Assembly (NCBI GenBank): GCA_965248285.1
Contig: CBDFJJ010000010.1
Span: 133,062-197,061, forward strand
Direction: 5' to 3'
DNA length: 64,000 bases
Source: Gemmatimonadales bacterium
GTDB lineage: Bacteria; Gemmatimonadota; Gemmatimonadetes; Gemmatimonadales; GWC2-71-9
The first letter of the stretch is position 1, and the number at the start of each line of letters is the position of its first letter. Made by a program: the position numbers and the translations under genes. The notes under the pieces were generated by a model. It did not search any database. It saw nothing but the letters and a program-made list of their open reading frames with translations, and was not told the DNA's origin. This document shows, one piece after another, positions 2,445 to 64,000 of the stretch.

Positions 2445-2547
2445 GGCTGCTGTCACGGAGCCGGTCTGCGGATGTATTCGCCAACCCGAGAGATGGGCGA
2501 ACGGCGACGGGTCGATCAGTTCGAGAGATACGAAGCAGTCGCTCATG

Positions 2548-2853
2548 CTAGACATCCCACCGTCGCTCTGCGCTCTCGATGCGCCTAGCTTCGATGCGCC
2601 TAGACTCTTGGGCACGCTGGATATGCCCATCGCCAACCCACATATGAACGGCGACGTTCAAGAACGACATGACGACGGCCCACGCGAATACCAGGACTTT
2701 CAGCACGTGCAGGGGGAGATCGAACACAAGGGCGGCACCGATCCCAACGCATACGAGAGTCCCAACGACTGCGATCCACTTGGGGAATCCGGCCATGTAG
2801 CGGCGTGGACGCAATTCGTGGTGGACCGCCGCCACACGCTGCGCCGAGCTCAT
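2548..2853 (-). CDS. small two-TM membrane protein (paralog of 1715-1972)
   Basis: Paralogy as above. The ATG at 2851-2853 overlaps the upstream stop (ATGA). Confidence 0.45.
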   Translation of the reverse strand: MSSAQRVAAVHHELRPRRYMAGFPKWIAVVGTLVCVGIGAALVFDLPLHVLKVLVFAWAVVMSFLNVAVHMWVGDGHIQRAQESRRIEARRIESAERRWDV

Positions 2854-3134
2854 GACGCCACCCCCGAGGAGCTGCGGACCGTCTTCGAAGACGAAGTCCG
2901 GAAGAGGTTCTCGTAGAGGGTGGGCACGTGACGCCCGACCCACTGAACCGCCTGGTCCGTGGTCAAGATGAGCTTCCGGTCCGGTGTGTCGGGGAGGAAC
3001 TGGCATATGAAGGTCGTCGCGTAGACGACGCAGAGCTCTCCGGGCGTCGCGTCGGGGGTCCAAGCCCAGAACATGTGGAGCCGTGCCTTCGCGTGGGCGG
3101 ATGTCACTTCGGCCTCCCGTAGGCGCTCCATCAC
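2850..3134 (-). CDS. hypothetical prophage protein
   Basis: High GC3 from (V)MERLREAEV to the stop. The longer 173-aa track ORF is a chimera created by the 174-bp repeat. Confidence 0.45.
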   Translation of the reverse strand: MMERLREAEVTSAHAKARLHMFWAWTPDATPGELCVVYATTFICQFLPDTPDRKLILTTDQAVQWVGRHVPTLYENLFRTSSSKTVRSSSGVAS

Positions 3135-3266
3135 GAGAGTCCGCCTTCCATGCTTCGCCTCAGGGCGTCGCGTCTCCGCGCCCCTCACGACACCCCTCCC
3201 TCCCCCGCCAGCACACGCTCGCGAGCCTCCTGTTGGGCCTGCTTGATCCGTTCTTCTCTCCTGCAC

Positions 3267-3440
3267 GGCGTACCGTTGAAACACCAAACGGCTGGTGACG
3301 CGTTTCCCGTTGGCGCCCCAATGACGCCGGCGTAGAGTGGTCGCCATGTCAGCACACACCCAACCATTCATCTACCCGCTGGCATTCGGCCAAGGCTGCC
3401 TTCGCCGATTCGTACCGCTCAGGCAGAGGAGCATGCGCGA
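3267..3440. repeat. 174-bp direct repeat, partner 1285-1458
   Basis: See partner. Confidence 0.8.
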
Positions 3441-3506
3441 TGTCGAGATCCGGGGGAGGAGAAACGGAGTCGCGTCGAGCGACCTCAGTTGCGATGGTCA
3501 CGATGA

Positions 3507-3713
3507 TTATGCGGAGGCTGGATTTGCTTTACGAACGATTTGCAGGGCGCGCTCAAACGCACTCTCCACGACGAAGTGCGCGCGTTTCTTGCCGAGCATT
3601 GCGCAGGCGATGTCGATCGTCCGGCGTTCCTCCTCGGTCGCCCAGCCGCCAACCACTGTTTTCTTGTCGGGGTCGTTAGCGTCGGGTAGATTGCCTACGT
3701 TGCTGGAAGCCAT
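3507..3713 (-). CDS. small ribbon-helix-helix-type DNA-binding protein (Cro-like or antitoxin-like)
   Basis: 68 aa, motif DKKTVVGGWATEEERRTIDIACAMLGK. Divergent from an XRE gene. Positional analog of 61562-61777. Confidence 0.5.
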   Translation of the reverse strand: MASSNVGNLPDANDPDKKTVVGGWATEEERRTIDIACAMLGKKRAHFVVESAFERALQIVRKANPASA

Positions 3714-3818
3714 TGCGTACCTTGGACTTAAAGGGATAGCGCAACTCCATCTAAGGGGAGTTACGCATGATAGTATCCCCTTAAAAGGATTTTGTCAAGA
3801 AAGGGAGTATCCCCTTAA
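3714..3818. promoter_or_regulatory. divergent promoter/operator region of prophage L immunity switch
   Basis: TATCCCCTTAAA at 3774-3785 and 3808-3819. Inverted relatives at 3728-3738 (TTAAAGGGATA) and 3751-3760 (CTAAGGGGAG). TTGTCA at 3792-3797. Confidence 0.5.
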
Positions 3819-4730
3819 ATGGACTGGAAAGTTGCCGAGAACGTCGGCGCGAGGATCGCAGATCTCAGAAAAGCTCTTGGGGGTATATCCCAGCGAAAAC
3901 TGGCCGCGCGAGTAGGGGTGGGCAGCAAGCAGGTGTCAAAATGGGAAAACGGGGACCAGGTTCCGCCTCGAACCCGCCTCGCCTCCTGGGTAGAGCGCGA
4001 AGGTTGGCCGATTGAGATGTTCGCGGAGGGCGGTCCAATGCCCTCCACGGTTGTTAACAAGCCCGTTAACGACCTTTCCGGAGAGGGTCGGGCCCTTTAT
4101 GTGTCGACCATAGCAGGAAGACCGCGCGTGCGTGTAAAGGAGCTTGTCGAGGAGGTTCAGAACAGGATCATGCAAGAGCTTTTTGAGCATGGCCTTGAGC
4201 CCGTGCCGCGAGACAGCATAATCTGGGCCGACACTGAAGCGGCCGAACGGAAGACGAGACTTCTACTCAGGCGGATGGACGATGCTATGGATGAGTTGGT
4301 GGGTGGAAAAATGGGGACAAACGCCAAAATTGGCTTATTTATGGCGAAAACATCGTTCGTGAAGGCCGTCGAGGATCAAAGTCGGCATGCAGGCTTGGAG
4401 CCCACCAAGTGGGTTGCTGATTTGGGGGCGGAGGTCGAGGAAAACCGATCGTCCATAATCGACAAACACATCCAATGGTTGGGGCAGGGCCTCCCGGCCA
4501 TGGTTAAACGGCACGTGGACGAGGTCATAGACGAGATGACACCGGGCCTAGCAGAGGACGATCTAGTTGATGTAGTGATGAATGTAGCAACAGAGGGCGA
4601 GGAGGGACCTAAAGCCTCGGTGATCGCCTCAGGCTCGCGACACGGCGATACTTCGAAGCAGGTGCGGCAGAGCGAATCCACCGACGAGGAGGAAGAGGCA
4701 CCTCCGCAGCAGAAGGAATCAGGCGAATAG
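3819..4730 (+). CDS. XRE-family HTH regulator (CI-like) with long acidic C-terminal extension
   Basis: N-terminus RIADLRKALGGISQRKLAARVGVGSKQVSKWENG is a classic HTH_3. Shares GGPMPS-VVN with 60983-61435. Confidence 0.7.
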   Translation: MDWKVAENVGARIADLRKALGGISQRKLAARVGVGSKQVSKWENGDQVPPRTRLASWVEREGWPIEMFAEGGPMPSTVVNKPVNDLSGEGRALYVSTIAGRPRVRVKELVEEVQNRIMQELFEHGLEPVPRDSIIWADTEAAERKTRLLLRRMDDAMDELVGGKMGTNAKIGLFMAKTSFVKAVEDQSRHAGLEPTKWVADLGAEVEENRSSIIDKHIQWLGQGLPAMVKRHVDEVIDEMTPGLAEDDLVDVVMNVATEGEEGPKASVIASGSRHGDTSKQVRQSESTDEEEEAPPQQKESGE

Positions 4731-4782
4731 CGTCGGACTCGAGGATCGCCTTGATGTCATACTTGTCCAGGTAGCGCTGCAA

Positions 4783-5196
4783 TTGGTAGTTGCTGTTGCC
4801 GCCCTCTGCGACCACGCGAACGTGTCGAAAGAAGGCCACCTCAATATCTCTGGGATCTGGGACACGATTGGGGCACCAGATTTTCCTTGTACCCATGCCG
4901 TCATGCATCTCGCGTTGCGCTTCCGATTTGGCTTCGACGACTCCGACAAGGAACACACGGTCTACGTCGAACTACGTGACCCGGAAGAGAACGTGCGGTG
5001 GGGCATGCAGGGAAGGCTGCGAGCCCGTCAGATTCCCGCTGGACGGTTTCATCACCTGAATCAGATCATCCGGCTGACCGGCGTGCAATTCCCGGGTCCT
5101 GACGACTACCATTTCATCATTCGTGGCGAGACGATCGCCGAAACAAAAGTCCCGTTTCAGGTCCTACAGATTGAGGACACTCCGGCCACACCGTGA
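4783..5196 (+). CDS. hypothetical protein (DUF6941-like by recollection only)
   Basis: 137-aa ORF with TTG start. Its stop overlaps the next start (GTGA). An antisense ORF competes for this region. Confidence 0.4.
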   Translation: MVVAVAALCDHANVSKEGHLNISGIWDTIGAPDFPCTHAVMHLALRFRFGFDDSDKEHTVYVELRDPEENVRWGMQGRLRARQIPAGRFHHLNQIIRLTGVQFPGPDDYHFIIRGETIAETKVPFQVLQIEDTPATP

Positions 5197-5465
5197 CCCG
5201 GCGGCGGCGGCTCTTAGAAGAGATGCGTGACGATTCTCACGGATGGTCATGGCTCGATGCGGAATACTTGTTGCAGGAATGGGGATTCAAGCCCCATGAG
5301 GACCTGGACGATACTCGACCTGACGGGGCCTATTTATGGGAACATCCAGACGTACCCGGCGTTATATTCGACGTGCCGAGGTGGGAGCCGCTCGCTTCGG
5401 GGGTTATTCGGGCACTTGTTCGGTACGTTGACATCGTTCGTGAAAGACTCGGAATCGAAGACTGA
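5193..5465 (+). CDS. HicA-like putative toxin
   Basis: 90 aa. Layout LLQEWGF...GAYLWEHPD...VIFDVPRWEPL...VIRALVRYV resembles the HicA fold order. Sits immediately upstream of a HicB-like gene. Confidence 0.4.
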   Translation: MTRRRRLLEEMRDDSHGWSWLDAEYLLQEWGFKPHEDLDDTRPDGAYLWEHPDVPGVIFDVPRWEPLASGVIRALVRYVDIVRERLGIED

Positions 5466-5477
5466 GGTTTTAGAATC

Positions 5478-5804
5478 ATGCCCCGAATACTGGCAAACTA
5501 CACGATCAAGACACAGTGGGAGCCCGCACCCAACGGCGATGGCCTCCTGTTCTTGCTCACACTCGAAGAGATCCCTGGATGTATGGCACAGGGTCGCAGC
5601 TATCGTGAGGCGCGGCGCCAACTCCAGAGAATCTTTCCAAAGTTTCTTGAGGCCATGCGCGCACGCGGCATTGAGCCCCCCGCCCCACGAGAGGGCACCG
5701 TCCGCGTCGCTGATCTGCTTATCGGAATCGACAACAATCTGCGCATTCCGCTCCGACCTGGGCTTCGATCGGATCGCGTAGTTCGAGAGTACGAGTTCGT
5801 GTAA
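5478..5804 (+). CDS. HicB-family antitoxin-like protein
   Basis: LLTLEEIPGCMAQGRSYREARRQLQRIFPKFLEAMRARGIEPPAP matches the HicB N-domain pattern (pelpGC.aqG.t.eEA). Confidence 0.6.
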   Translation: MPRILANYTIKTQWEPAPNGDGLLFLLTLEEIPGCMAQGRSYREARRQLQRIFPKFLEAMRARGIEPPAPREGTVRVADLLIGIDNNLRIPLRPGLRSDRVVREYEFV

Positions 5805-53001: not shown

Positions 53002-53366
53002 CCCGTTCGTTTTGGAAGATTCCGCGCGCCGCCTGGCTGACCACCGACGAAGAGGGCACGATCGTCAACGCCTTCGAGAACGTCGTCGTCTACCACGAGA
53101 CGCCGCAATTTCTCCACGTCATCGCGGCGGAAGCCGACCGCCCCGACATCGCGGCGATCGGCACGCGACTCGGTCAGACCGTGCGAGAACTCAACCCGAG
53201 CGAGCGTGCGAATTTTCTTCGTGTCGAGGTCGAGCGCGACAGTCCCGACGGGAAGATCCGAGCGCAGGTCAAGGTCGCCGACAAGCGACCGACGGACGTC
53301 GAGAAGGCCGTCGATATTCCTGCGGTGATCTGGTTCGGGGACGATCCGGCGGACTACGCCCCATGA
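52998..53366 (+). CDS. small phage tail-associated protein
   Basis: ATGA-coupled on both sides. The C-terminal ~85 aa are identical to 12640-12996. Confidence 0.55.
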   Translation: MTRSFWKIPRAAWLTTDEEGTIVNAFENVVVYHETPQFLHVIAAEADRPDIAAIGTRLGQTVRELNPSERANFLRVEVERDSPDGKIRAQVKVADKRPTDVEKAVDIPAVIWFGDDPADYAP

Positions 53367-56131
53367 GAGCGATTCATCCCGAGCTCGTCCGCATGTTGCG
53401 CAAGGCCCCGATTACCGGACGTGCGCGTGTGATCCCGGAAGCGATCGTGCCCGTTAATGAAGACGTGCGAGCCTTCGACACCGACTGGAACAACGCCGAT
53501 TCGCCGACCGGCCTCCAGGTCGCGCCGAACGGCGACCTGCGGCTCACGGGGTCGTTCTCGACTACGGTCGAGCACACCAATAGCGATACGTACATGACCG
53601 ATCTCGACCGGGCCTCGCCCTGGTCGGTTGCCAAGGTCACGTGGGCAGGCACGCTGGACCGCGACTTCGAGATCCAGCAAGTCAAAGCGTACCTGCACCC
53701 GAAACGGACCGCGGCGGCGAAAGAAGTCGTCTGGTGGAAGATGATACTCTACCGCGTGCATCGGGTGTGGCCGGCAAGCGTGTTCATCGCGCAAACGTTG
53801 GAGATCCAGGCGATCGGCTCGGCCAAACGCGTCGCGGCCACGGGGACCGCGGAAGCGGAATACATCTTCGACTTCAGCGGTAGCGATAACGGGGCCAAGC
53901 CGAAGCTCGAGCGGCCCATCATCATGCCGGGGGCGATGGCGATCCGTCCCACGACCTACATCCGCATCCTGGCGTTGAAGGCCGATGGATCCGCCGCGGG
54001 TAACGTGGGATTCAGCGCCGATACGGCGACACCGAGTGTCACTACGTCAGGCGTGACGCTTGAGCAAACCACGTTGACCGAGAACGCGGTTGGGGACGGA
54101 CGCGGGCGCTGGTCGGAGCCCGATGTCCCTGTCGACGAGTGTCCCCGCCTGGCGATCATAGCGGAAAGCTATTCGGATGCGACGGTCACGTTTTCCGTCG
54201 CCGGCGGGGGCACGATTATCAATCTCGGGGCCGCGCCGACGAAGGATCTCGAGTGTGTCCTGGTGGGACGGACCCCCAGTGACACCGCGATCGTGGGCGA
54301 GATTCGCAAAGCGGCGCCCGACGCCTGGACGGAGTTTTTGGACGGTGATCTCATCGGTGTCGATAATTCGCTACCTGGTGGCACCGGTGGCAAGGACCTG
54401 TCTGGTCTTACACCGACACAGCAAACGTACGAGATTCGCGCCCAACTGAAAACCAACACCGCGCTGAACACGACTCCGCGGTTAAAACAGTTGGGGGTGC
54501 GCGAGCTCACCCGGATCTCCTTCGACCGCCTCGCCACCGTCGACGTCGAGTGGAATGTGCATCCGTACGAGATGCGGAGCGAGATCAGCCGCGCGGTGAT
54601 CACGAGCATGCGCGACGGCCGCGAGGATTTCAACGACCAGATTACCGAGTTACTGGTCGACTACGACGTGGCCGAGATTGCCTGGCGGATCATGATCGGG
54701 CACCCGGATCTCGATCGCCACAAGTGGCTGCACATCGACACGTTTCCGATCGCCTACGATTACGATCCGCGCGCGACGGAGATCGAATGCCAGTGGGATT
54801 CGGCCCTCACTTTGCTGCGGGCGGCCCTGCCGGTGGCCTCTGGTTCGCCGCTGACGCGCGACATCCTGAACTACAACGCCACCGTGGGGATCGAGACGCT
54901 CAAGGAGGTGAGCGATGACCTCCTCGACGGGCAGATCGGGCTCGCGGGCAAGTACCGCGGGCAAGGCATCACCGACGACACGACCACGATCGCGAAGCGG
55001 ATCGGGGAGCGGGATCCCGACATGGTCGTCACGGCTTTGTCCGATGCGAAGACCGAGGCTGACGCGGTTGCGTTTATTGCCGGCGGCGCATGGGGGACGG
55101 ACGCAGGACGGGTGCGGTTCTTCGATCTGTTTGCTGACGACTTCGTCGTCATGCTCTTTCATGAGCGGGAGATCACCGTCGAGTCCGTGAGTCCCGGCCT
55201 CGCGCTGCGCACGCCCGAAGTGTTTCTCGCGTACGATTACGACGTGCAGAGTCGCCAGTACACCTTGGAGCATCGCGGGTTTCATGGGGTGGCATTGACC
55301 GCCCTCGGGATCTCGAACTTGGGACCGCCGAAACGGCTCTCGGATACGGTCGGCAAATGGATCGACGACACCACGCTGGCCGAAACCGTCGTCGAACGCC
55401 ACTTCAACGCGTTTGGCATGGGCGTCCGGTTGTGGCGCTTTCGGTGCATCTACCCCTACCCCGAACTGCAATTCGGCGATCGGGTGATTGTGCCCACGAA
55501 ACAATTCGTGATGCGGGATCCGATCGGCAGCCGTGAATTGCGCGGTCAGCTCTGGGTGATTGGGACGATCGTCGGTGTCCACGATGCGTTGGGAACCGCG
55601 TTTACGCTCTGGGTGCGCAGTCTCTCGGACATCCTCGCGAGTAGCGAGGCGGTGACGATCGAGCTCCGGAAACGCCTCGTCGCCCGGTGCTACCATAGCG
55701 TGGCCACGGTCTCGTATAGCGCGGGCGGAACGGGTAGCGGTTCGCTGGCGTGGGATAACGAAGTCTTCGACCCCGAAGGGATGCACGACAACTCGACCAA
55801 CAACGAACGGTTCACCGTCCCGACGACGGGCACCTATCGCATTCAAGGCGCCATCAAGTATTCGAATTACGCCGTGACCGGCAGCGGGTACGTGCTTCTC
55901 GAGATCAAGAAAAACGGCGCCACCACCCTGCACTACATCCTCAACGCCGGCAATACCTTTCCACCCGCTGCGTCAGGTTCCCTGCCCTACACCGCGTTGG
56001 TTGATCTCACGGCCGGGGACTACATCACGCTCGATATCCGCTGCGCCGTGATCGTCTCCGGGTCTGCCCAGATGGACATCGAGGGCGGCGCGGCGACGGA
56101 TTCGACCTATGAGATCGCCTGGGAAGGCTAG
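53363..56131 (+). CDS. phage tail host-specificity protein, prophage R copy
   Basis: 922 aa from the ATG at 53363. The track ORF from 53012 is an over-extension. Confidence 0.75.
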   Translation: MRAIHPELVRMLRKAPITGRARVIPEAIVPVNEDVRAFDTDWNNADSPTGLQVAPNGDLRLTGSFSTTVEHTNSDTYMTDLDRASPWSVAKVTWAGTLDRDFEIQQVKAYLHPKRTAAAKEVVWWKMILYRVHRVWPASVFIAQTLEIQAIGSAKRVAATGTAEAEYIFDFSGSDNGAKPKLERPIIMPGAMAIRPTTYIRILALKADGSAAGNVGFSADTATPSVTTSGVTLEQTTLTENAVGDGRGRWSEPDVPVDECPRLAIIAESYSDATVTFSVAGGGTIINLGAAPTKDLECVLVGRTPSDTAIVGEIRKAAPDAWTEFLDGDLIGVDNSLPGGTGGKDLSGLTPTQQTYEIRAQLKTNTALNTTPRLKQLGVRELTRISFDRLATVDVEWNVHPYEMRSEISRAVITSMRDGREDFNDQITELLVDYDVAEIAWRIMIGHPDLDRHKWLHIDTFPIAYDYDPRATEIECQWDSALTLLRAALPVASGSPLTRDILNYNATVGIETLKEVSDDLLDGQIGLAGKYRGQGITDDTTTIAKRIGERDPDMVVTALSDAKTEADAVAFIAGGAWGTDAGRVRFFDLFADDFVVMLFHEREITVESVSPGLALRTPEVFLAYDYDVQSRQYTLEHRGFHGVALTALGISNLGPPKRLSDTVGKWIDDTTLAETVVERHFNAFGMGVRLWRFRCIYPYPELQFGDRVIVPTKQFVMRDPIGSRELRGQLWVIGTIVGVHDALGTAFTLWVRSLSDILASSEAVTIELRKRLVARCYHSVATVSYSAGGTGSGSLAWDNEVFDPEGMHDNSTNNERFTVPTTGTYRIQGAIKYSNYAVTGSGYVLLEIKKNGATTLHYILNAGNTFPPAASGSLPYTALVDLTAGDYITLDIRCAVIVSGSAQMDIEGGAATDSTYEIAWEG

Positions 56132-56619: not shown

Positions 56620-57038
56620 AGAACCTCCGCTCGATCGCGCTCTACCTCTGGGAGCGGGAGCTCGGCACGCCGTACCGCTGGGGCGGCGACGACCCGATCG
56701 CGGGTTTCGACTGCTCGGGGTTGGTGATCGAGCACCTTAAGGCGGTCGGGATCCTGCCGGCGCAAGGCGATTGGACGGCCGAGGGGCTCGCCAAGCGGTT
56801 CGAGGGCCGCGAGGTGACCAAGCTCAAACCGGGCTGCCTACTCTTCTGGTTCCGCGGCTCGAAGATCGGGCACGTCGAAATCGTATGGCACGTGATCGGG
56901 GAACGCGTCCTGACGATCGGGGCGGCTGGTGGTGGGTCGCGCACCCAGACTGCAGCCGACGCCGAGGAGCAAAACGCCTATATCAAGGTCCGGCCAGCGC
57001 GGCCGGAGTGGGTCAAGGCCGTCGATCCCTTTTTCTAG
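56616..57038 (+). CDS. NlpC/P60-family endolysin, prophage R
   Basis: PYRWGGDDPIAGFDCSGLV and GHVEIV motifs. Confidence 0.85.
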   Translation: MKNLRSIALYLWERELGTPYRWGGDDPIAGFDCSGLVIEHLKAVGILPAQGDWTAEGLAKRFEGREVTKLKPGCLLFWFRGSKIGHVEIVWHVIGERVLTIGAAGGGSRTQTAADAEEQNAYIKVRPARPEWVKAVDPFF

Positions 57039-57273
57039 CCAGTCTTCCGGCCAGGGATAGAAGGGGCTCGCGTCGGTGCGGTGCGGTGGTGGTGTGAGCC
57101 AGTCGCTGTAGATCCACTGAGTGATGCCCACAAAAAGGTATGGGTCAGTTTGAAATCTGACCCTGTTGCCCTCCCGCCCGTAGGTCCCCTAGCTTTCAGC
57201 TATGCCGAAGAAGAAACCCGAACCGGGCAAGCTCCGCGAGGATGTTGTGCCTCTCTCGCTACCCGCTCTGGTG
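57030..57273. repeat. 244-bp inverted repeat, left arm (partner 60807-61050)
   Basis: I reverse-complemented the right arm and compared it base by base: identical over 244 nt. Confidence 0.9.
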
Positions 57274-57535
57274 CCGGGGCGTTCTGCCTGAGTAGATAGA
57301 GCCGGTACGCAGTATCAAGATTCATCCAGAACTGAGCGCTAGTGCCCAACGCGGCACTGAAAAGCACTGCTGCGTCTGGCGACAGGGTGCGCTTGCCGGA
57401 GATGATACTACTTACAAAGCTCTGGTGGCGGCCAATGATTCTCGCAAACTGCTTTTGTGTCCAACCCCGCTCTTCCAACTCGTCCCGTAAGAACTCACCA
57501 GGGGGGAACGCTTCAGCCGGTGCAAATTCCGTCAT
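57200..57535 (-). CDS. HigA-type HTH antitoxin; last ~24 codons read into the repeat arm
   Basis: GEFLRDELEERGWTQKQFARIIGRHQSFVSSIISGKRTLSPDAAVLFSAALGTSAQFWMNLDTAY. Confidence 0.7.
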   Translation of the reverse strand: MTEFAPAEAFPPGEFLRDELEERGWTQKQFARIIGRHQSFVSSIISGKRTLSPDAAVLFSAALGTSAQFWMNLDTAYRLYLLRQNAPAPERVAREAQHPRGACPVRVSSSA

Positions 57536-57550
57536 GCTGCTCTCCCTCCG

Positions 57551-57848
57551 TTAGTGGTAATCTTCAATCGCAATTATTCCAACCTTCTTGTTTGGGCTCT
57601 CGCCTCTGAGTTCAACCACAAGTCGCCATTGTTTGTTGATACGAAGAGATCGCTGGTGCTTGCGTTTCCCTTTCAGTTTTTCGAAGCGTAGCGATTTGTG
57701 CTTGTATAGGTCCCGTTCGTCGGCCGCCGCTCGGATAGCCTGCATCACCTTTCGGAATCCTCGATCTACGGCGTCCCCCGAACCACCCGTAGCACCACGA
57801 TCAGCCTCTAGTTTTTGAAGGGCGGCGTCCCTCGTGCTCTACTTCCAT
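57551..57848 (-). pseudogene. HigB-type toxin with an apparent 1-nt frameshift
   Basis: C-terminus LRFEKLKGKRKHQRSLRINKQWRLVVEL...IEDYH. The N-terminal homology (DAALQKLEAD...FRKV) has no start. The ATG at 57846-57848 is one frame off. CCC run at 57829-57831. Confidence 0.6.
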
Positions 57849-57945
57849 GTCCAAGGATAGTCGATTACCGTAAAATTATCGGTAGTGGGTCATTTTGAAT
57901 TGTTGAGGCTCTGCGCGACGAGCTTGCCCCTGTTAGCTTTCATAT

Positions 57946-58200
57946 ATGCCGAAAAAGAAGCCCATTGCGAAAACCAAGCTCCGTCCCGACATGAACGAGA
58001 CGGCGCATCGCGTGATGCTGGAAGCGACAGGCCAGGTCCCTAAGACTGTCCCGCCCGGTGAGCGCGAGGATAGCGAAAAAAACCCCGAGGCGGTGAAACG
58101 TGGGGCGAAGGGCGGCGAGGCCCGGGCTAAGGTACTGACCGACGAGGAGCGCGAAAGAATCGCGCAGACGGCCGCCCTGGCGCGGTGGAAGAAGGACTAG
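57946..58200 (+). CDS. small basic protein (MPKKKP..., C-terminal KGGEARAKVLTDEERERIAQTAALARWKK)
   Basis: 84 aa. Its start context is homologous to the truncated ORF inside both 244-bp arms. Confidence 0.5.
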   Translation: MPKKKPIAKTKLRPDMNETAHRVMLEATGQVPKTVPPGEREDSEKNPEAVKRGAKGGEARAKVLTDEERERIAQTAALARWKKD

Positions 58201-58688
58201 TAGTCCGACCCGGACTCAGCCATTCCGCGTGCGATCCGACGCAGCTCCACGTCGAGGGTGAAGTCTTTCTCGACAGTGATAGGTTCTTGGTCGGGATTGA
58301 TACGATTCCAGTGGTCCATGTCGAAGGTAAGCTGGGTGATGTCGCCGACGGTCTGTTCACGGCGCATCGTCTTCGACGCCTCCATCGGTGTCCGGTCGGC
58401 CTCGTCGATGTCGATCCACAGGTGTAGCTGGTCCCGATTCTCGTCGGTCACGACGTACATGTGGTTGACCCGGTAAGGCTCTCCCGTCTCGGGGTCCGTC
58501 CGCGTCTCCTCGCGCGCCGCTTGGGAGAATCTACGGACGAGTTGTTCACGCGGGTCCTTCGGCTCCGGCAACGGATACCCCATCGTATCAATGGCCCAGG
58601 CGACCACGGCCTTCATATCCACCGACGGATTACCGGTCTCGTCTCGGTAGTGACGAATGAGTTTCTGCATCTCTTGATTCTGGCTCAT
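58197..58688 (-). CDS. hypothetical 163-aa protein, no family recognised
   Basis: Second gene of an operon with the XRE-M78 fusion (20-nt gap). Confidence 0.55.
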   Translation of the reverse strand: MSQNQEMQKLIRHYRDETGNPSVDMKAVVAWAIDTMGYPLPEPKDPREQLVRRFSQAAREETRTDPETGEPYRVNHMYVVTDENRDQLHLWIDIDEADRTPMEASKTMRREQTVGDITQLTFDMDHWNRINPDQEPITVEKDFTLDVELRRIARGMAESGSDY

Positions 58689-58708
58689 TGTGCTTGGTCC
58701 TGAAGTGA

Positions 58709-59854
58709 CTAGGAAACGATTGGAGCGACATCACCCCATCCGTCGTGCATGACGTTGGGCAGGACGACTGACCGCACCCTGGCCAAATGCTTTTGAAAGC
58801 GGTCGTATCGCTCTGTGGCGTGTTGGATCTGGCCAGCCACTAGGCCAGGGTGAACATTCACCAGTTTAGCAAAGCTCAGAAGGTCCCTTTCGGTGAATAT
58901 CGGGGCCTTGCACGCTATGAATTGATTTAGGGTCTTCGTTGGAACGCAAAAATCAGCCGCAGCCTTGTTGGCGATACGTTCCTGTTCCTCTACGTCGGGG
59001 CCGATGCCCGCTCGATCGCCTTCAAGTTCGGCGTCGAAAGCGACGGTGGCCCGGCCATCTCCACGCAGGACGTGCTCACATTCGTGACGGAGCACGAACC
59101 AAAAGTTATCGATGCGGTCGTGCCTCATTGTCAGGCCAATCACCGGAGACCGATCGTCGAGCCAGAAGCACACCCCATCAATCTTGGCCGACTTCAGCGA
59201 CTCAACGATCACTAGTCTGATCCCCGCTTCGGCCAAGATGCGTGGAGCCCTCCGTGCCTCTTCGGCTGAAGCCAATAGGGTACGGAGCTGCCTGATCGCC
59301 CTTTGCATCGCCTTCGTCGAGTATCGGGGCACCACCATCACGGTGGCGATCTGCCTGACGCGATACAGCCAGGCAAGCTGTGCCGGGGTCACGTCGCTGT
59401 TGACGGAGGTCTTCTTCGTTGCGTGCGGCAAGATCTCGATGTTGGATGGTGACTCCACGTCGAAAAAACTGGCCAGCGCGGATTCCACTTGCTCGGTGTT
59501 CTTCATGTCGTCGATAGCCAACCATCCTCGGCAAGTCATCTCTTTGACAGGTAGGTCGCCGTATAACTGAGCACGTCGAGCCCGACTTGGGTCGGGCATT
59601 GTCTCGATGCGTGCGCGAGCCAGGTCATAGTTCTTTTGAAGGCCCAGGAAGGTTTCGGCTGGCACACCAAAAACCTCCGACAAAGCGAGCGCCTTGGGGG
59701 CATCGAGGGGTTGCCTGTCGGTGGCAATCCGGGCCACATGGGCACGACTTATTTCCAAGACCGTCGCGAGCACTTCTTGGGTCCAGTCCTTCTGCGAAAG
59801 AAGCCACCGGATGAGTTGCCCTGGCGTCTGGAAGTCCGGCGGGTTGTTTGACAT
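58709..59854 (-). CDS. HTH (XRE/HigA-like) fused to ImmA/IrrE-type M78 metallopeptidase
   Basis: N-terminus WTQEVLATVLEISRAHVARIATDRQPL...FLGLQKNYDL. C-terminus has HEXXH (RHECEHVLRGD). Confidence 0.75.
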   Translation of the reverse strand: MSNNPPDFQTPGQLIRWLLSQKDWTQEVLATVLEISRAHVARIATDRQPLDAPKALALSEVFGVPAETFLGLQKNYDLARARIETMPDPSRARRAQLYGDLPVKEMTCRGWLAIDDMKNTEQVESALASFFDVESPSNIEILPHATKKTSVNSDVTPAQLAWLYRVRQIATVMVVPRYSTKAMQRAIRQLRTLLASAEEARRAPRILAEAGIRLVIVESLKSAKIDGVCFWLDDRSPVIGLTMRHDRIDNFWFVLRHECEHVLRGDGRATVAFDAELEGDRAGIGPDVEEQERIANKAAADFCVPTKTLNQFIACKAPIFTERDLLSFAKLVNVHPGLVAGQIQHATERYDRFQKHLARVRSVVLPNVMHDGWGDVAPIVS

Positions 59855-59927
59855 GGGAGGAATGTATGCGATGTTCGAAATAATACAACAACATTGCTTG
59901 TGCTTAGCAGTTGACTATATTATAGAC

Positions 59928-60797
59928 ATGAACAGACTGTCAGATGCCAAGCGCGCAGCAATCCTACGGTGCCTCACCGAAGGCAATTCCATCCGGTCCA
60001 CGGCCCGCATTACCGGCACCGTGAAAGCCACCGTCCTAAAGTTGCTGGTCGAAACGGGCGAGTTCTGCTCGAACTATCAGGAGCAAGTTCTACGGGATCT
60101 GGACTGCAAGCGTATCGAAGCCGACGAAATTTGGGCCTTCATCGGAGCGAAACAGAGGAACCCGAAGAAGGCGGGGGACGGTGACATTTGGACGTTCACG
60201 GCTCTCGACCCCGATTCCAAGCTGATGGTCGCATGGCTCGTTGGCGACAGAAGCCCCAAGAGTGCCACCATTTTCATGAAGGATCTGGCGTCACGAGTCT
60301 CGGACAAGATCCAGCTAACGACGGATGGTCACGGGATGTACCTGAGCGCCGTACGTGCGGCTTTCAGTTTCCTCGACGTAGACTACGCACAAGTTGTGAA
60401 AAAATACGGCCAGCTAGGGACCACAGAGGAACGGCGGCGTTACTCACCACCGACATGCACCGGGGCCAAGAAGGTCAGAATGATCGGCAACCCCAACCCG
60501 GACCTGATCTCAACATCCATGGTCGAGCGCAGCAACCTACAGCTTCGGATGTCTTCACGGCGATTCACCCGCTTGACGAGCGGATTCAGCCGGAAGGCCG
60601 AGAATCACGCCCACGCGGTCAGCCTGACCTTCATGGCGTACAACTTCTGCACGCTCCACGGGACCCTCACGAAGGCGCGCGGTGGCCTCAAGACGACCCC
60701 AGCGATGGCCGCTGGCCTTACAAAGCGCCCTTGGAAGATTGAGGACGTCCTGGCCCTCATGGATGGGGCGTACCGTACGACCGCGAATTCAAAATGA
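59928..60797 (+). CDS. IS1-family transposase (single-ORF type)
   Basis: N-terminal HTH (AAILRCLTEGNSIRSTARITG), then ADEIWAFIGAKQ...WTFTALD...TTDGHGMY. Confidence 0.8.
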   Translation: MNRLSDAKRAAILRCLTEGNSIRSTARITGTVKATVLKLLVETGEFCSNYQEQVLRDLDCKRIEADEIWAFIGAKQRNPKKAGDGDIWTFTALDPDSKLMVAWLVGDRSPKSATIFMKDLASRVSDKIQLTTDGHGMYLSAVRAAFSFLDVDYAQVVKKYGQLGTTEERRRYSPPTCTGAKKVRMIGNPNPDLISTSMVERSNLQLRMSSRRFTRLTSGFSRKAENHAHAVSLTFMAYNFCTLHGTLTKARGGLKTTPAMAAGLTKRPWKIEDVLALMDGAYRTTANSK

Positions 60798-60806
60798 CCC
60801 ACTACC

Positions 60807-61050
60807 CACCAGAGCGGGTAGCGAGAGAGGCACAACATCCTCGCGGAGCTTGCCCGGTTCGGGTTTCTTCTTCGGCATAGCTGAAAGCTAGGGGACCTAC
60901 GGGCGGGAGGGCAACAGGGTCAGATTTCAAACTGACCCATACCTTTTTGTGGGCATCACTCAGTGGATCTACAGCGACTGGCTCACACCACCACCGCACC
61001 GCACCGACGCGAGCCCCTTCTATCCCTGGCCGGAAGACTGGCTAGAAAAA
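60807..61050. repeat. 244-bp inverted repeat, right arm
   Basis: See the left arm. Confidence 0.9.
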
Positions 61051-61435
61051 CGGAACTCGCAGCACGAGACCTAAGTTCCTCGTCGGTCAACACGCTGTCG
61101 GGCGCTTCCCGTAAAATCGCTCCGGCCCTAACGACCGCCTCAGACAACACCGCGATCGCCTCCCCTGCCCGTGTGACTCGCTCCATGCCGTTCTTGCCGT
61201 AGGAGACGTAAACGGGACCGTTGACGACACTAGAGGGCATCGGCCCACCGTCTGAAAACACCCTCAGCGGTGCCCCTATGAGCTTGGCTAGTTGCCGTAC
61301 AAACTCCGGCGGGACCTCGTTCCGTCCTCGCTCCCACGACTGAACGGTACTACGGCCACGAAAGACGACGTCCCCAAAGTCGTCCTGGCTCATATCAAAG
61401 ATGTTCTTCCGGACGTCGCGAAGTCGCTCTCCCAT
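60983..61435 (-). CDS. XRE-family HTH regulator (CI-like), 3' end replaced by the repeat arm
   Basis: MGERLRDVRKNIFDMSQDDFGDVVFRGRSTVQSWERG. Alternative TTG start at 61480. From 61050 downward the frame translates the arm. Confidence 0.6.
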   Translation of the reverse strand: MGERLRDVRKNIFDMSQDDFGDVVFRGRSTVQSWERGRNEVPPEFVRQLAKLIGAPLRVFSDGGPMPSSVVNGPVYVSYGKNGMERVTRAGEAIAVLSEAVVRAGAILREAPDSVLTDEELRSRAASSVFLASLPARDRRGSRRCGAVVV

Positions 61436-61473
61436 ATCCTTTGCTGGACGCCAAGTTTGAGCCACATTCCCTC

Positions 61474-61524
61474 TTGACAATCTCTAATATTGAGCATATT
61501 ATAGTACCATAAGCTCAACATTAG
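61474..61524 (+). promoter_or_regulatory. sigma-70-type promoter with flanking operator half-sites
   Basis: TTGACA (61474-61479), 17 nt, TATTAT (61497-61502). Inverted CTAATATTGAGC (61484-61495) / GCTCAACATTAG (61513-61524). Confidence 0.55.
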
Positions 61525-63434: not shown

Positions 63435-64000
63435 TCACCCCTTATCCGTGTGCGCCCACCAGACGACGCGCCCCATGATTCGGGCTCGATCATCGAGCGG
63501 CTGCGGCTCGTACTCTTCGTTGTCGCTGTCCGCCCACCAGCGGTGCTTGCGTTTGCGGAGACGCTTGACCACCGGGCCTTCGTCCGTCCGTAGCGCGTAG
63601 ATCCAGCCGCTGCGCGGTGCGCAGCGAGTCTCATCGACCAGCGCCGCGTCTCCGTCGAAGATCGTGCGCTCCATACTATCGCCTGATACATCGACCAGGG
63701 AGACGTCCTTGGCCCTCAGCCTTTGCTTGCGCAGCCAGCTTGTGCGGAATTTGACCTCACCGGCGACGGGCTCTTGGTCGGCGAACGTTCCGGTTCCCGC
63801 CGCTAGCCGGACATCCTCGGACTCGTAGCGTCTGACGGACTCGTAGTCTTCGTCCCGCCAGCCCGGCGCTGACTGGATCGGGGACACGTCGGGGTCGGTG
63901 AGGTCGGCTGCTGCCTGCAGCCGCTCCAGCTCCGCCTCGGTACGCTCCAGCGCAGCTTCCAGCTGCTCGCGCTTGCGCGCCTCCTCCCGGCGGATCCGGG
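63435..64000 (-). CDS. S24-peptidase (LexA/CI-type) repressor, N-terminus beyond the window
   Basis: VSGDSMERTIFDGD...GPVVKRL Ser/Lys dyad. My translation shows the frame stays open to nt 64000 through a coiled-coil (RIRREEARKREQLEAALERTEAELERLQAAAD). Confidence 0.75.
   Translation of the reverse strand, partial: RIRREEARKREQLEAALERTEAELERLQAAADLTDPDVSPIQSAPGWRDEDYESVRRYESEDVRLAAGTGTFADQEPVAGEVKFRTSWLRKQRLRAKDVSLVDVSGDSMERTIFDGDAALVDETRCAPRSGWIYALRTDEGPVVKRLRKRKHRWWADSDNEEYEPQPLDDRARIMGRVVWWAHTDKG

Follow-up and report, generated by a model that had tools for sequence, protein, structure and literature searches.

What can be the function of a gene that fuses a helix-turn-helix (HTH) domain to an M78 peptidase, when the gene behind it belongs to no named family? 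This question is raised by a stretch of 64,000 nucleotides (nt) from a Gemmatimonadales bacterium (GCA_965248285.1, contig CBDFJJ010000010.1, positions 133,062 to 197,061), referred to here as the window. An earlier note on this DNA had described two minus-strand open reading frames (ORFs), at 58709-59854 and 58197-58688, as an HTH-peptidase fusion and an acidic partner, a candidate novel toxin-antitoxin (TA) or phage-sensing pair carried on a transposon in a prophage next to HigBA. Both ORFs are present at these positions and are called B and C below. We found that they form a gene pair conserved in many phyla, that the pair in the window is cargo of an insertion sequence (IS) of the IS1 family, and that C represents a new protein family. 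B-C may be a TA-like conflict module, a reading to which we give a probability of about one half.

B is a predicted HigA-type HTH-M78 fusion

The two domains said to be fused in one protein were both recovered in B. Pfam placed HTH_3 at amino acids (aa) 15-67 (E = 4e-7) and Peptidase_M78 (PF06114) at aa 215-312 (24.7 bits versus a cut-off of 22), and B also scored above the cut-off of the HigA equivalog TIGR02607 (48.5 versus 47.7). The motif RHECEHV corresponds to aa 256-262, with HECEH at aa 257-261. In 92 full-length relatives, H257, E258, H261, and E292 were invariant, the last within an ExxAN motif, and the peptidase half keeps all of its catalytic residues. The most variable stretch of B among these relatives was the recognition helix of the HTH.

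The AlphaFold2 model of B had a predicted local distance difference test (pLDDT) score of 82.8. When this model was compared with known structures by Foldseek, the N-terminus matched HigA (2ict and 6chv, target-normalized template modeling [TM] score of 0.78-0.83), and the protease part matched PprI in complex with single-stranded DNA (ssDNA) (8sln, probability 1.0), CapP (7t5t, probability 1.0), and IrrE (3dti, probability 0.99). The C-terminal ~65 residues, referred to as the tail, were modeled as three or four helices. Among defense-system profiles, PADLOC PD-Lambda-2_B (PDLC03982) matched B at 1e-47, with aa 5-362 aligned to positions 54-394 of the 402 in the profile. An RmrA model gave a weak and partial match (E = 0.0026, aa 205-264), and RamB was also matched weakly.

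C belongs to an uncharacterized family

C starts 20 nt behind B, with AGGA upstream of its ATG, and no terminator-like site was found between the two genes in the window. Given this spacing and the lack of such a site, co-transcription of B and C is the natural reading of the sequence. For C, 126 close homologs were obtained, and a C profile matched 1,066 clusters at 50% identity, nearly all of which were stand-alone proteins of 150 to 165 aa; homologs of B numbered more than 5,700. These large counts indicate that B and C are real genes rather than chance ORFs. C is acidic, as had been noted, with an isoelectric point (pI) of 4.75 and a net charge of -12. An alignment of 61 C proteins showed a mean column identity of 53% and 13 invariant residues, mostly polar or charged, including R59, D65, Y72, R73, H76, D95, R110, D142, and D146. 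The AlphaFold2 model of C (pLDDT 95.1) is composed of three N-terminal helices, a four-stranded sheet, a long helix, and a C-terminal helix.

The statement that C could not be assigned to a family held in every search. As a single sequence, C had no match in Pfam, NCBIfam, PADLOC, or PHROGs; the 61 aligned members had no credible match in Pfam at E = 1. With the C profile, the best matches among PDB sequences were designed helical repeat proteins (E of 0.03 or worse). Foldseek of the C model gave nothing at E ≤ 0.001, with a best E of 0.4 in the PDB and of 6e-3 in BFVD, where the match was an unnamed viral protein (query-normalized TM score of 0.48). Since sequence, profile, and fold searches gave nothing usable, C is an uncharacterized family without a recognizable fold relative in the libraries searched. 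Two named proteins were considered as relatives of C and rejected, namely, RmrT and PD-λ-2C, the latter a protein of ~358 aa with the PF14350 Beta_protein domain; neither PADLOC model matched C at the permissive E = 10.

B and C are conserved as neighbors

Searches with the C profile recovered 80 genome loci, and 27 IMG/VR viral loci were examined as well. The genome loci were from Gemmatimonadota, Alpha-, Beta-, Gamma-, and Deltaproteobacteria, Acidobacteriota, Chloroflexota, Verrucomicrobiota, Nitrospirota, Omnitrophota, and others. B lay upstream of C on the same strand in 77 of the 80, directly adjacent in all but one (L091; loci are cited by such numbers where they must be told apart), and the remaining three comprised two contig ends and one decayed copy. 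The pair was likewise present in 26/27 viral loci. The earlier note had named a lack of conserved neighborhood as a result that would speak against its reading; the neighborhood is in fact conserved, since C directly follows B at about 100 loci that span more than 10 phyla. Across these loci, the gap between the genes was roughly 4 to 35 nt, and a few of the ORFs abutted or overlapped.

Gene content was counted in the 90 loci with full-length B and C. A divergent transposase accompanied the pair in 57 of them, and 51 of these 57 also carried a small gene, S84, which is described below. Neither transposase nor S84 was found in 27 loci, only an upstream HigB-like gene stood beside the pair in 2, and 4 were undetermined. 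The transposase-less loci formed an Acinetobacter/Moraxella clade, a Burkholderiales/Xanthomonas clade, and singletons nested in IS clades, and they often adjoined integrases or resolvases. In general, B-C pairs were found almost exclusively in ISs, prophages, plasmids, and integrase-flanked islands.

Within the deepest branch of the family (for example, L017, L127, and L129), a HigB-like gene, here called A, lies directly upstream of the pair, giving the order A-B-C with a C of the 163-aa family. L017 is a Paraburkholderia plasmid locus flanked by restriction-modification and abortive infection (Abi) genes. On a viral contig (L128, IMGVR_UViG_3300031991_000106, 2530-5756), HigB, B, C, S84, and the transposase all lie inside the IS ends. 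This locus links the three-gene order, which is like that of the defense system PD-λ-2, to the IS lineage.

The pair is cargo of an IS1-family insertion sequence

In the window, B and C lie within a unit of 2,926 bp that contains four genes, S84, C, B, and the transposase, and is bounded by perfect inverted repeats (Table 1). The repeat occurs twice in the window, versus 0.01 occurrences expected by chance. The transposase scored 38 bits against PF03400 (cut-off 24.1) and remained under the cut-off of the NCBIfam IS1 equivalog (58.6 versus 100), which marks it as a divergent member of the IS1 family. Its relatives at 45-50% identity are labeled "IS1 family transposase" in plasmid records.

The four-gene unit was found with common ends (consensus GGTAGTGGGTCAGTTTGAAA) in unrelated flanks, in many phyla and dozens of loci. 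Target duplications of 8 bp were present in three relatives (L005, L013, and L018), and the closest variant (L104), the B of which is 97% identical to that of the window, had a 9-bp duplication, GACAAGGTG. Because of the common ends in unrelated flanks and the target duplications in relatives, the unit is a transposable element, an IS1-family IS with three passenger genes. The claim of carriage on a transposon thus stands as far as a mobile element is concerned and is corrected as to its kind, which is a single IS with passengers and not a composite transposon. The copy in the window has no target duplication and differs in its flanks (AAATTATC versus CACCAGAG); it has probably been rearranged since insertion.

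ISs with passenger genes are called "tIS" in ISfinder terms. The window IS resembles IS1-type members of this group in its DDE_Tnp_IS1 transposase, its GGT-initiated terminal inverted repeats, and the 8-9-bp target duplications of its relatives. It differs in that a single-ORF transposase lies at one end and three conserved passengers fill two thirds of the element. Literature searches found no description of an IS1-family lineage with such passengers.

The third passenger, S84, has no match in Pfam. Its homologs were found tail-to-tail after C as 61 ORFs and were never seen in loci confirmed to be transposase-less; two contig-end loci have S84 with the transposase undetermined. The protein carries the N-terminal motif KRPRDPNQLAKxIVDIATGE and the C-terminal motif GGKARAxxLTPEQRxEIARxAAxARWKK, and one homolog is named "histone H1" in its record. 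C and S84 end on a shared CTAG (58197-58200), so that their stop codons overlap by 4 nt, as they also do in roughly 35 of the 55 related IS copies. No terminator fits between the two genes, which implies that they are transcribed toward each other and that each transcript runs antisense to the other gene.

The cargo of this IS lineage is not restricted to B-C. On a Hoeflea sp. plasmid (L102, NZ_CP011481, 1055-5278), a sister IS that shares the terminal repeats and has a transposase of 48% identity carries a genuine RosmerTA (RmrT, 1e-97; RmrA, 3e-191) and further small genes. Another, on an Acidiphilium multivorum plasmid (L101, NZ_CP041717, 1767-4400), carries a gene for an SDH-type (ClpP-like) serine protease. 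Since sister ISs with the same ends carry RosmerTA or other genes, the cargo slot of the lineage holds interchangeable conflict-type modules. Two further observations concern the surroundings of these elements: a RES-Xre TA pair abuts the Acidiphilium IS, and an SDH-type serine protease gene lies directly beside another IS copy (L002, 3668-4312).

Control region and cassette exchange

The divergent orientation of B and the transposase is conserved in 58 loci spread across more than 10 phyla. In the window, a candidate promoter of B has its -35 element at 59943 and a -10 element that ends at 59914. Two types of signal were found in the control regions of related loci. One is the motif GTCAAGCAT, present in 46/59 loci with a transposase versus 3/37 without; its complement supplies a TTGAC -35 element for the transposase gene, which is apparently leaderless. 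The other is a palindrome beside the B promoter, commonly AGTTTGC-N8-GCAAACT and, in other lineages, TTCCCCTAATGGGGGA, TTAACGGAAGCGTTAA, CGGATTGTGACAATCCG, or TGCGATTAATCGCA, among others. Palindromes also stand just upstream of stand-alone B-C pairs and, in A-B-C loci, upstream of HigB. Judging from this presence and absence across loci, the palindrome travels with B and GTCAAGCAT with the transposase. The linkage of the palindrome to B would fit autoregulation by the HTH. In the 58 related ISs, GTCAAGCAT often occurs as an inverted or direct pair beside the transposase start (for example, L035, 3704-3836). In its left half (GTCAGTTTG), the common putative operator of B is similar to the IS ends (GGGTCAGTTTGAAA).

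Comparison of the window IS with the IS of L002 revealed a mosaic. Identity is 97-100% in the transposase, C, S84, and the final ~200 nt of B and only 54-74% from the control region through B codon ~315 (window 58911-59930). Operator, HTH, and protease thus appear to have been exchanged as one cassette, while the tail of B stayed with C. Since the tail kept its link to C in this swap, it may be the part of B that contacts C. The exchange between otherwise near-identical ISs also suggests that selection may diversify the repressor/operator part, much as it does in the immunity regions of phages.

Comparison with known systems

An HTH-M78 fusion beside a small protein is a known architecture. 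A TA role for Xre-COG2856 fusions next to toxins was predicted in 2009 (PMC2701414), and the architecture was later validated as RosmerTA and PD-λ-2. The novelty claimed for the pair therefore applies to the partner family and not to the fusion or its position beside a small gene. What is new here is the C family, the incorporation of the pair, along with a small basic protein, in an IS1-family lineage that is widespread, and the cassette exchange.

PD-λ-2 (Vassallo et al. 2022, PMC9519451) is a validated abortive-infection system composed of a HigB-like A, an Xre-M78 B, and C, in which B alone is toxic, A rescues, and C is required only for defense. According to the supplement of that study, A belongs to PF09907 and C is the ~358-aa Beta_protein mentioned above. 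The window B matches PADLOC PD-Lambda-2_B over nearly its full length, L017 and L127-L129 share the A-B-C order, and a decayed A-B' remnant adjoins the window IS. The intact copy in the window differs from PD-λ-2 in that it has no A, its C is from another, unnamed family, and the module is embedded in an IS.

In RosmerTA (Millman et al. 2022; Ernits et al. 2023, PMC10440598), the antitoxin RmrA consists of an HTH and an ImmA-type Zn-peptidase and is paired with diverse RmrT toxins. B-C shares with it the combination of an Xre-M78 fusion gene and a small partner without known domains on mobile elements, and a sister IS with the same ends as the window IS carries a true RosmerTA. The differences are that the window B is only a marginal match to RmrA, that C does not match RmrT, and that B comes first in the gene order.

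A similar situation is described in a report on TA pairs of Tn3-family transposons (Lima-Mendez et al. 2020, PMC7157771), where a TA-type module borders the promoter region of the transposase, forms part of the transposable unit, and is inherited with it. The window element differs in being an IS1 element of about 3 kb without a resolvase, in carrying an Xre-M78 protein with a new protein and a small basic protein, and in a transposase linkage of the module that is conserved over many phyla.

The pairing of an M78 HExxH...E peptidase with an XRE HTH is also found in ImmR-ImmA of ICEBs1, DdrO-IrrE/PprI of Deinococcus, and CapH-CapP of the cyclic oligonucleotide-based antiphage signaling system (CBASS). 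The structures of PprI with ssDNA, IrrE, and CapP were among the matches of the predicted model of B. In contrast to these systems, the window B is one polypeptide, has an HTH of the HigA subtype, and has C as an obligate third partner. The immR-immA pair adjoins int, and the window B likewise adjoins a recombinase-type gene, the transposase. The role of ImmA is cited in PMC10440598. With HigA-type antitoxins, B shares the HTH profile and fold, whereas the gene upstream of B is a divergent transposase and not HigB.

The C family is large and unnamed, with about 1,000 clusters at 50% identity, and is the obligate partner of one Xre-M78 clade that annotation pipelines label "HigA antitoxin" or "ImmA/IrrE peptidase." The IS1-family lineage, found in Gemmatimonadota, Proteobacteria, Acidobacteriota, Chloroflexota, Omnitrophota, and prophages, carries TA/defense-type cargo (B-C, HigB-B-C, and RosmerTA). 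Thus, very small elements, and not only Tn7- or Tn3-like transposons, can spread such modules.

Proposed function and alternatives

By analogy with RosmerTA and PD-λ-2, we favor the reading of B-C as an autonomous, two-gene TA-like conflict module of their class, in which B would be an operator-binding repressor with its M78 domain as a signal-triggered switch. We infer operator binding, complex formation, a signal, toxicity, and defense in the following order. Through the HigA-type HTH, dimers of B would bind a palindromic operator immediately in front of the B promoter and repress the B-C operon; this binding would probably also influence the transposase promoter, because it lies only ~60-100 bp away on the opposite strand. 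B and C would form a complex, most likely through the tail of B. A signal such as DNA damage, ssDNA, or phage infection would activate the peptidase, in analogy to ImmA, IrrE/PprI, and CapP, and the activated peptidase would cleave B itself or a partner. Cleavage would derepress the locus and free a harmful partner, leading to growth arrest (abortive infection) or to punishment of element loss. As for polarity, we lean toward C as the effector and B as antitoxin and sensor, as in Rosmer, because the putative antitoxin gene comes first, B carries the putatively autoregulatory HTH, and the invariant residues of C resemble those of an enzyme.

The conflict-module reading is supported by the membership of B in the sequence family of a validated anti-phage component, PD-Lambda-2_B, and by the existence of the B-C pair without a transposase and with an upstream HigB-like toxin. 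Further points in its favor are the invariant HExxH and E292 of the protease, the strict linkage of B and C, the different cargo of sister ISs, the palindromes that travel with B, and the cassette exchange. Several results weigh against this reading. The polarity of PD-λ-2, with a toxic B and a protective HigB-like A, differs from that of Rosmer, and the window IS has no A. Sequence, profile, and fold searches revealed no resemblance of C to any toxin, antitoxin, or sensor; C is unusually well conserved (53%) and rigidly folded for an antitoxin, yet acidic for a typical toxin. The 73-bp control region of the window itself contains no clear palindrome. Covariation between HTH and operator was not significant in a fixed-offset partial Mantel test (r = 0.11, p about 0.10); a post-hoc 2x2 test, uncorrected for relatedness, gave an odds ratio of 9 (p = 0.005). 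Finally, the constant divergence from the transposase across phyla also fits a dedicated regulator of transposition.

The last point leads to the first alternative, in which B is a repressor of the IS1 transposase, like ImmR/ImmA of ICEBs1 or InsA of IS1. Stress would cause self-cleavage of B and derepress transposition, the IS would escape a doomed host, C and S84 would be accessory, and nothing would be toxic. A divergent B/transposase pair with a shared control region of 57-167 bp in 58 loci over more than 10 phyla, with a conserved operator-like palindrome and a motif at the transposase promoter, would fit such a switch. Exchange of operator, HTH, and protease would be expected if copies were selected for escape from trans-repression by resident ones, and the modeled protease fold resembles ssDNA-activated PprI and CapP. 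However, about 30% to a third of B-C pairs, including large, conserved stand-alone clades, have neither transposase nor S84. In addition, sister ISs move with different cargo, so B-C is dispensable for transposition, and B-C is also paired with a HigB-like toxin in a validated defense architecture. We consider this transposition switch, the main rival, unlikely; it and the conflict-module reading are not mutually exclusive. If the repressor-protease does control the transposase, the 3-kb element would be a compact system for stress-triggered transposition.

The second alternative keeps the conflict module and reverses its polarity along the lines of PD-λ-2, with B harmful through its deregulated protease and C either replacing A as the inhibitor or acting as a sensor. 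The genetics of PD-λ-2 (PMC9519451) and the place of the window B in the PD-Lambda-2_B family speak for it, as does the small size and acidity of C. The decay pattern of the pair points in the same direction: C was intact with B destroyed in L042 and apparently also in L003 and L009, and an intact B with a truncated C was seen only where HigB was present (L019). This pattern is weakened by the fact that L042 alone is robust; L003 is a contig of 2x coverage, and B is intact in a second assembly of the L009 species. Moreover, the Xre-M78 protein of RosmerTA is an antitoxin for which a deletion was unobtainable, and the many invariant polar residues of C are more like an active site than an inhibitor. 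We regard the reversed polarity as improbable.

A more far-reaching possibility combines transposition and toxicity, with the IS using B-C as an "escape-or-kill" switch. Sensing of damage or phage would derepress the transposase, allowing a jump to a replicating phage or plasmid, and would release C as a toxin of unseen fold, and cassette exchange would create immunity groups among IS copies, as in temperate phages. This scenario is speculative and quite improbable. Least probable is an ordinary transcription factor with a hitch-hiking housekeeping gene and no role in conflict, defense, or transposition, for although XRE-M78-like regulators also control metabolism (note the weak RamB match), the module is almost confined to ISs, prophages, plasmids, and integrase-flanked islands, B and C are strictly co-inherited, and B is in the sequence family of a validated defense protein.

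Genomic neighborhood

The features discussed here are listed in Table 1.

Table 1. Positions in the window of the B-C element and of neighboring features
Feature	Positions	Strand	Description
Tail protein	53012-56131		
NlpC/P60	56616-57038		
Left arm of inverted duplication	57026..57273	+	248 nt, perfect; contains the tip of a second related IS (IS-B)
"HigA"	57200..57535	-	111 aa; N-terminal ~96 residues of a second, truncated Xre-M78 gene of the B type
HigB-like remnant (A-type)	57551..57842	-	start lost; 65-aa ORF, HigB-like_toxin profile 33-78 of 91
Left terminal inverted repeat	57881..57901	+	GGTAGTGGGTCATTTTGAATT; perfect 21-nt pair with 60786-60806
S84	57946..58200	+	basic 84-aa passenger protein, pI 9.9; convergent with C
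C	58197..58688	-	163 aa; acidic alpha/beta protein of an uncharacterized family; candidate effector or partner
B	58709..59854	-	381 aa; HTH aa ~10-85, linker, M78 aa ~200-312, C-terminal helical tail aa ~316-381
Divergent control region	59855..59927	.	73 bp between B and transposase; 57-167 bp in 58 related IS copies
Transposase	59928..60797	+	289 aa; single ORF, IS1 family, DDE_Tnp_IS1
Right terminal inverted repeat	60786..60806	-	perfect 21-nt pair with 57881-57901
Right arm of inverted duplication	60807..61054	-	248 nt; abuts right end of intact IS
HTH repressor-like ORF	60983-61480	-	165 aa; last 24 codons inside right 248-nt arm
S24 (LexA/CI-like) peptidase ORF	63435-63887	-	150 aa; CI-like repressor

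The HigBA pair that had been reported next to B-C is not intact and lies outside the IS at 57200-57748, beyond its left end. The HigB remnant is 57% identical to the RelE/HigB protein of L017 over 92 aa. Upstream, the homology continues almost to an in-frame TAG at the expected gene start, ending a few codons short of it, and there is no start codon between this TAG and the 65-aa HigB ORF. The "HigA" is 47% identical to aa 1-93 of the 370-aa B of L017, which follows a HigB-like toxin, and its homology stops at the start of a second IS end remnant. Look-ups of the exact sequences of the window B and "HigA" gave no record. The two remnants are homologous to the HigB-B pairs of L017 and L019 and are a decayed A-B' system rather than an ordinary HigBA. 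Most likely, they are what is left of the cargo of a second, L128-type IS. The neighboring HigBA was also considered as the missing A of the intact module and was rejected, given its position outside the IS, the startless HigB, and the identity of "HigA" as a truncated second B.

The intact IS and the HigB'/B' remnant both lie between the arms of the 248-nt inverted duplication. Each arm includes the final 13 nt of NlpC/P60, a spacer of 89 nt, the second IS tip, and the 3' end of the truncated B'. The IS-B tip reads AGGTATGGGTCAGTTTGAAA at 57136 and is followed by the start of an S84-like ORF. The duplication could be a real rearrangement or an assembly artifact. A composite transposon bounded by the 248-nt repeats is unsupported, as the arms hold flanking DNA that is not part of an IS, with one IS tip each.

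The prophage setting proposed earlier is plausible. Because genes for a tail protein and NlpC/P60 and ORFs for HTH repressor-like and CI-like S24 proteins are nearby, it is reasonable to place the IS in the accessory region of a prophage, its surroundings resembling a prophage end. The 165-aa HTH ORF and the 150-aa S24 ORF match different halves of the phrog_4 repressor family.

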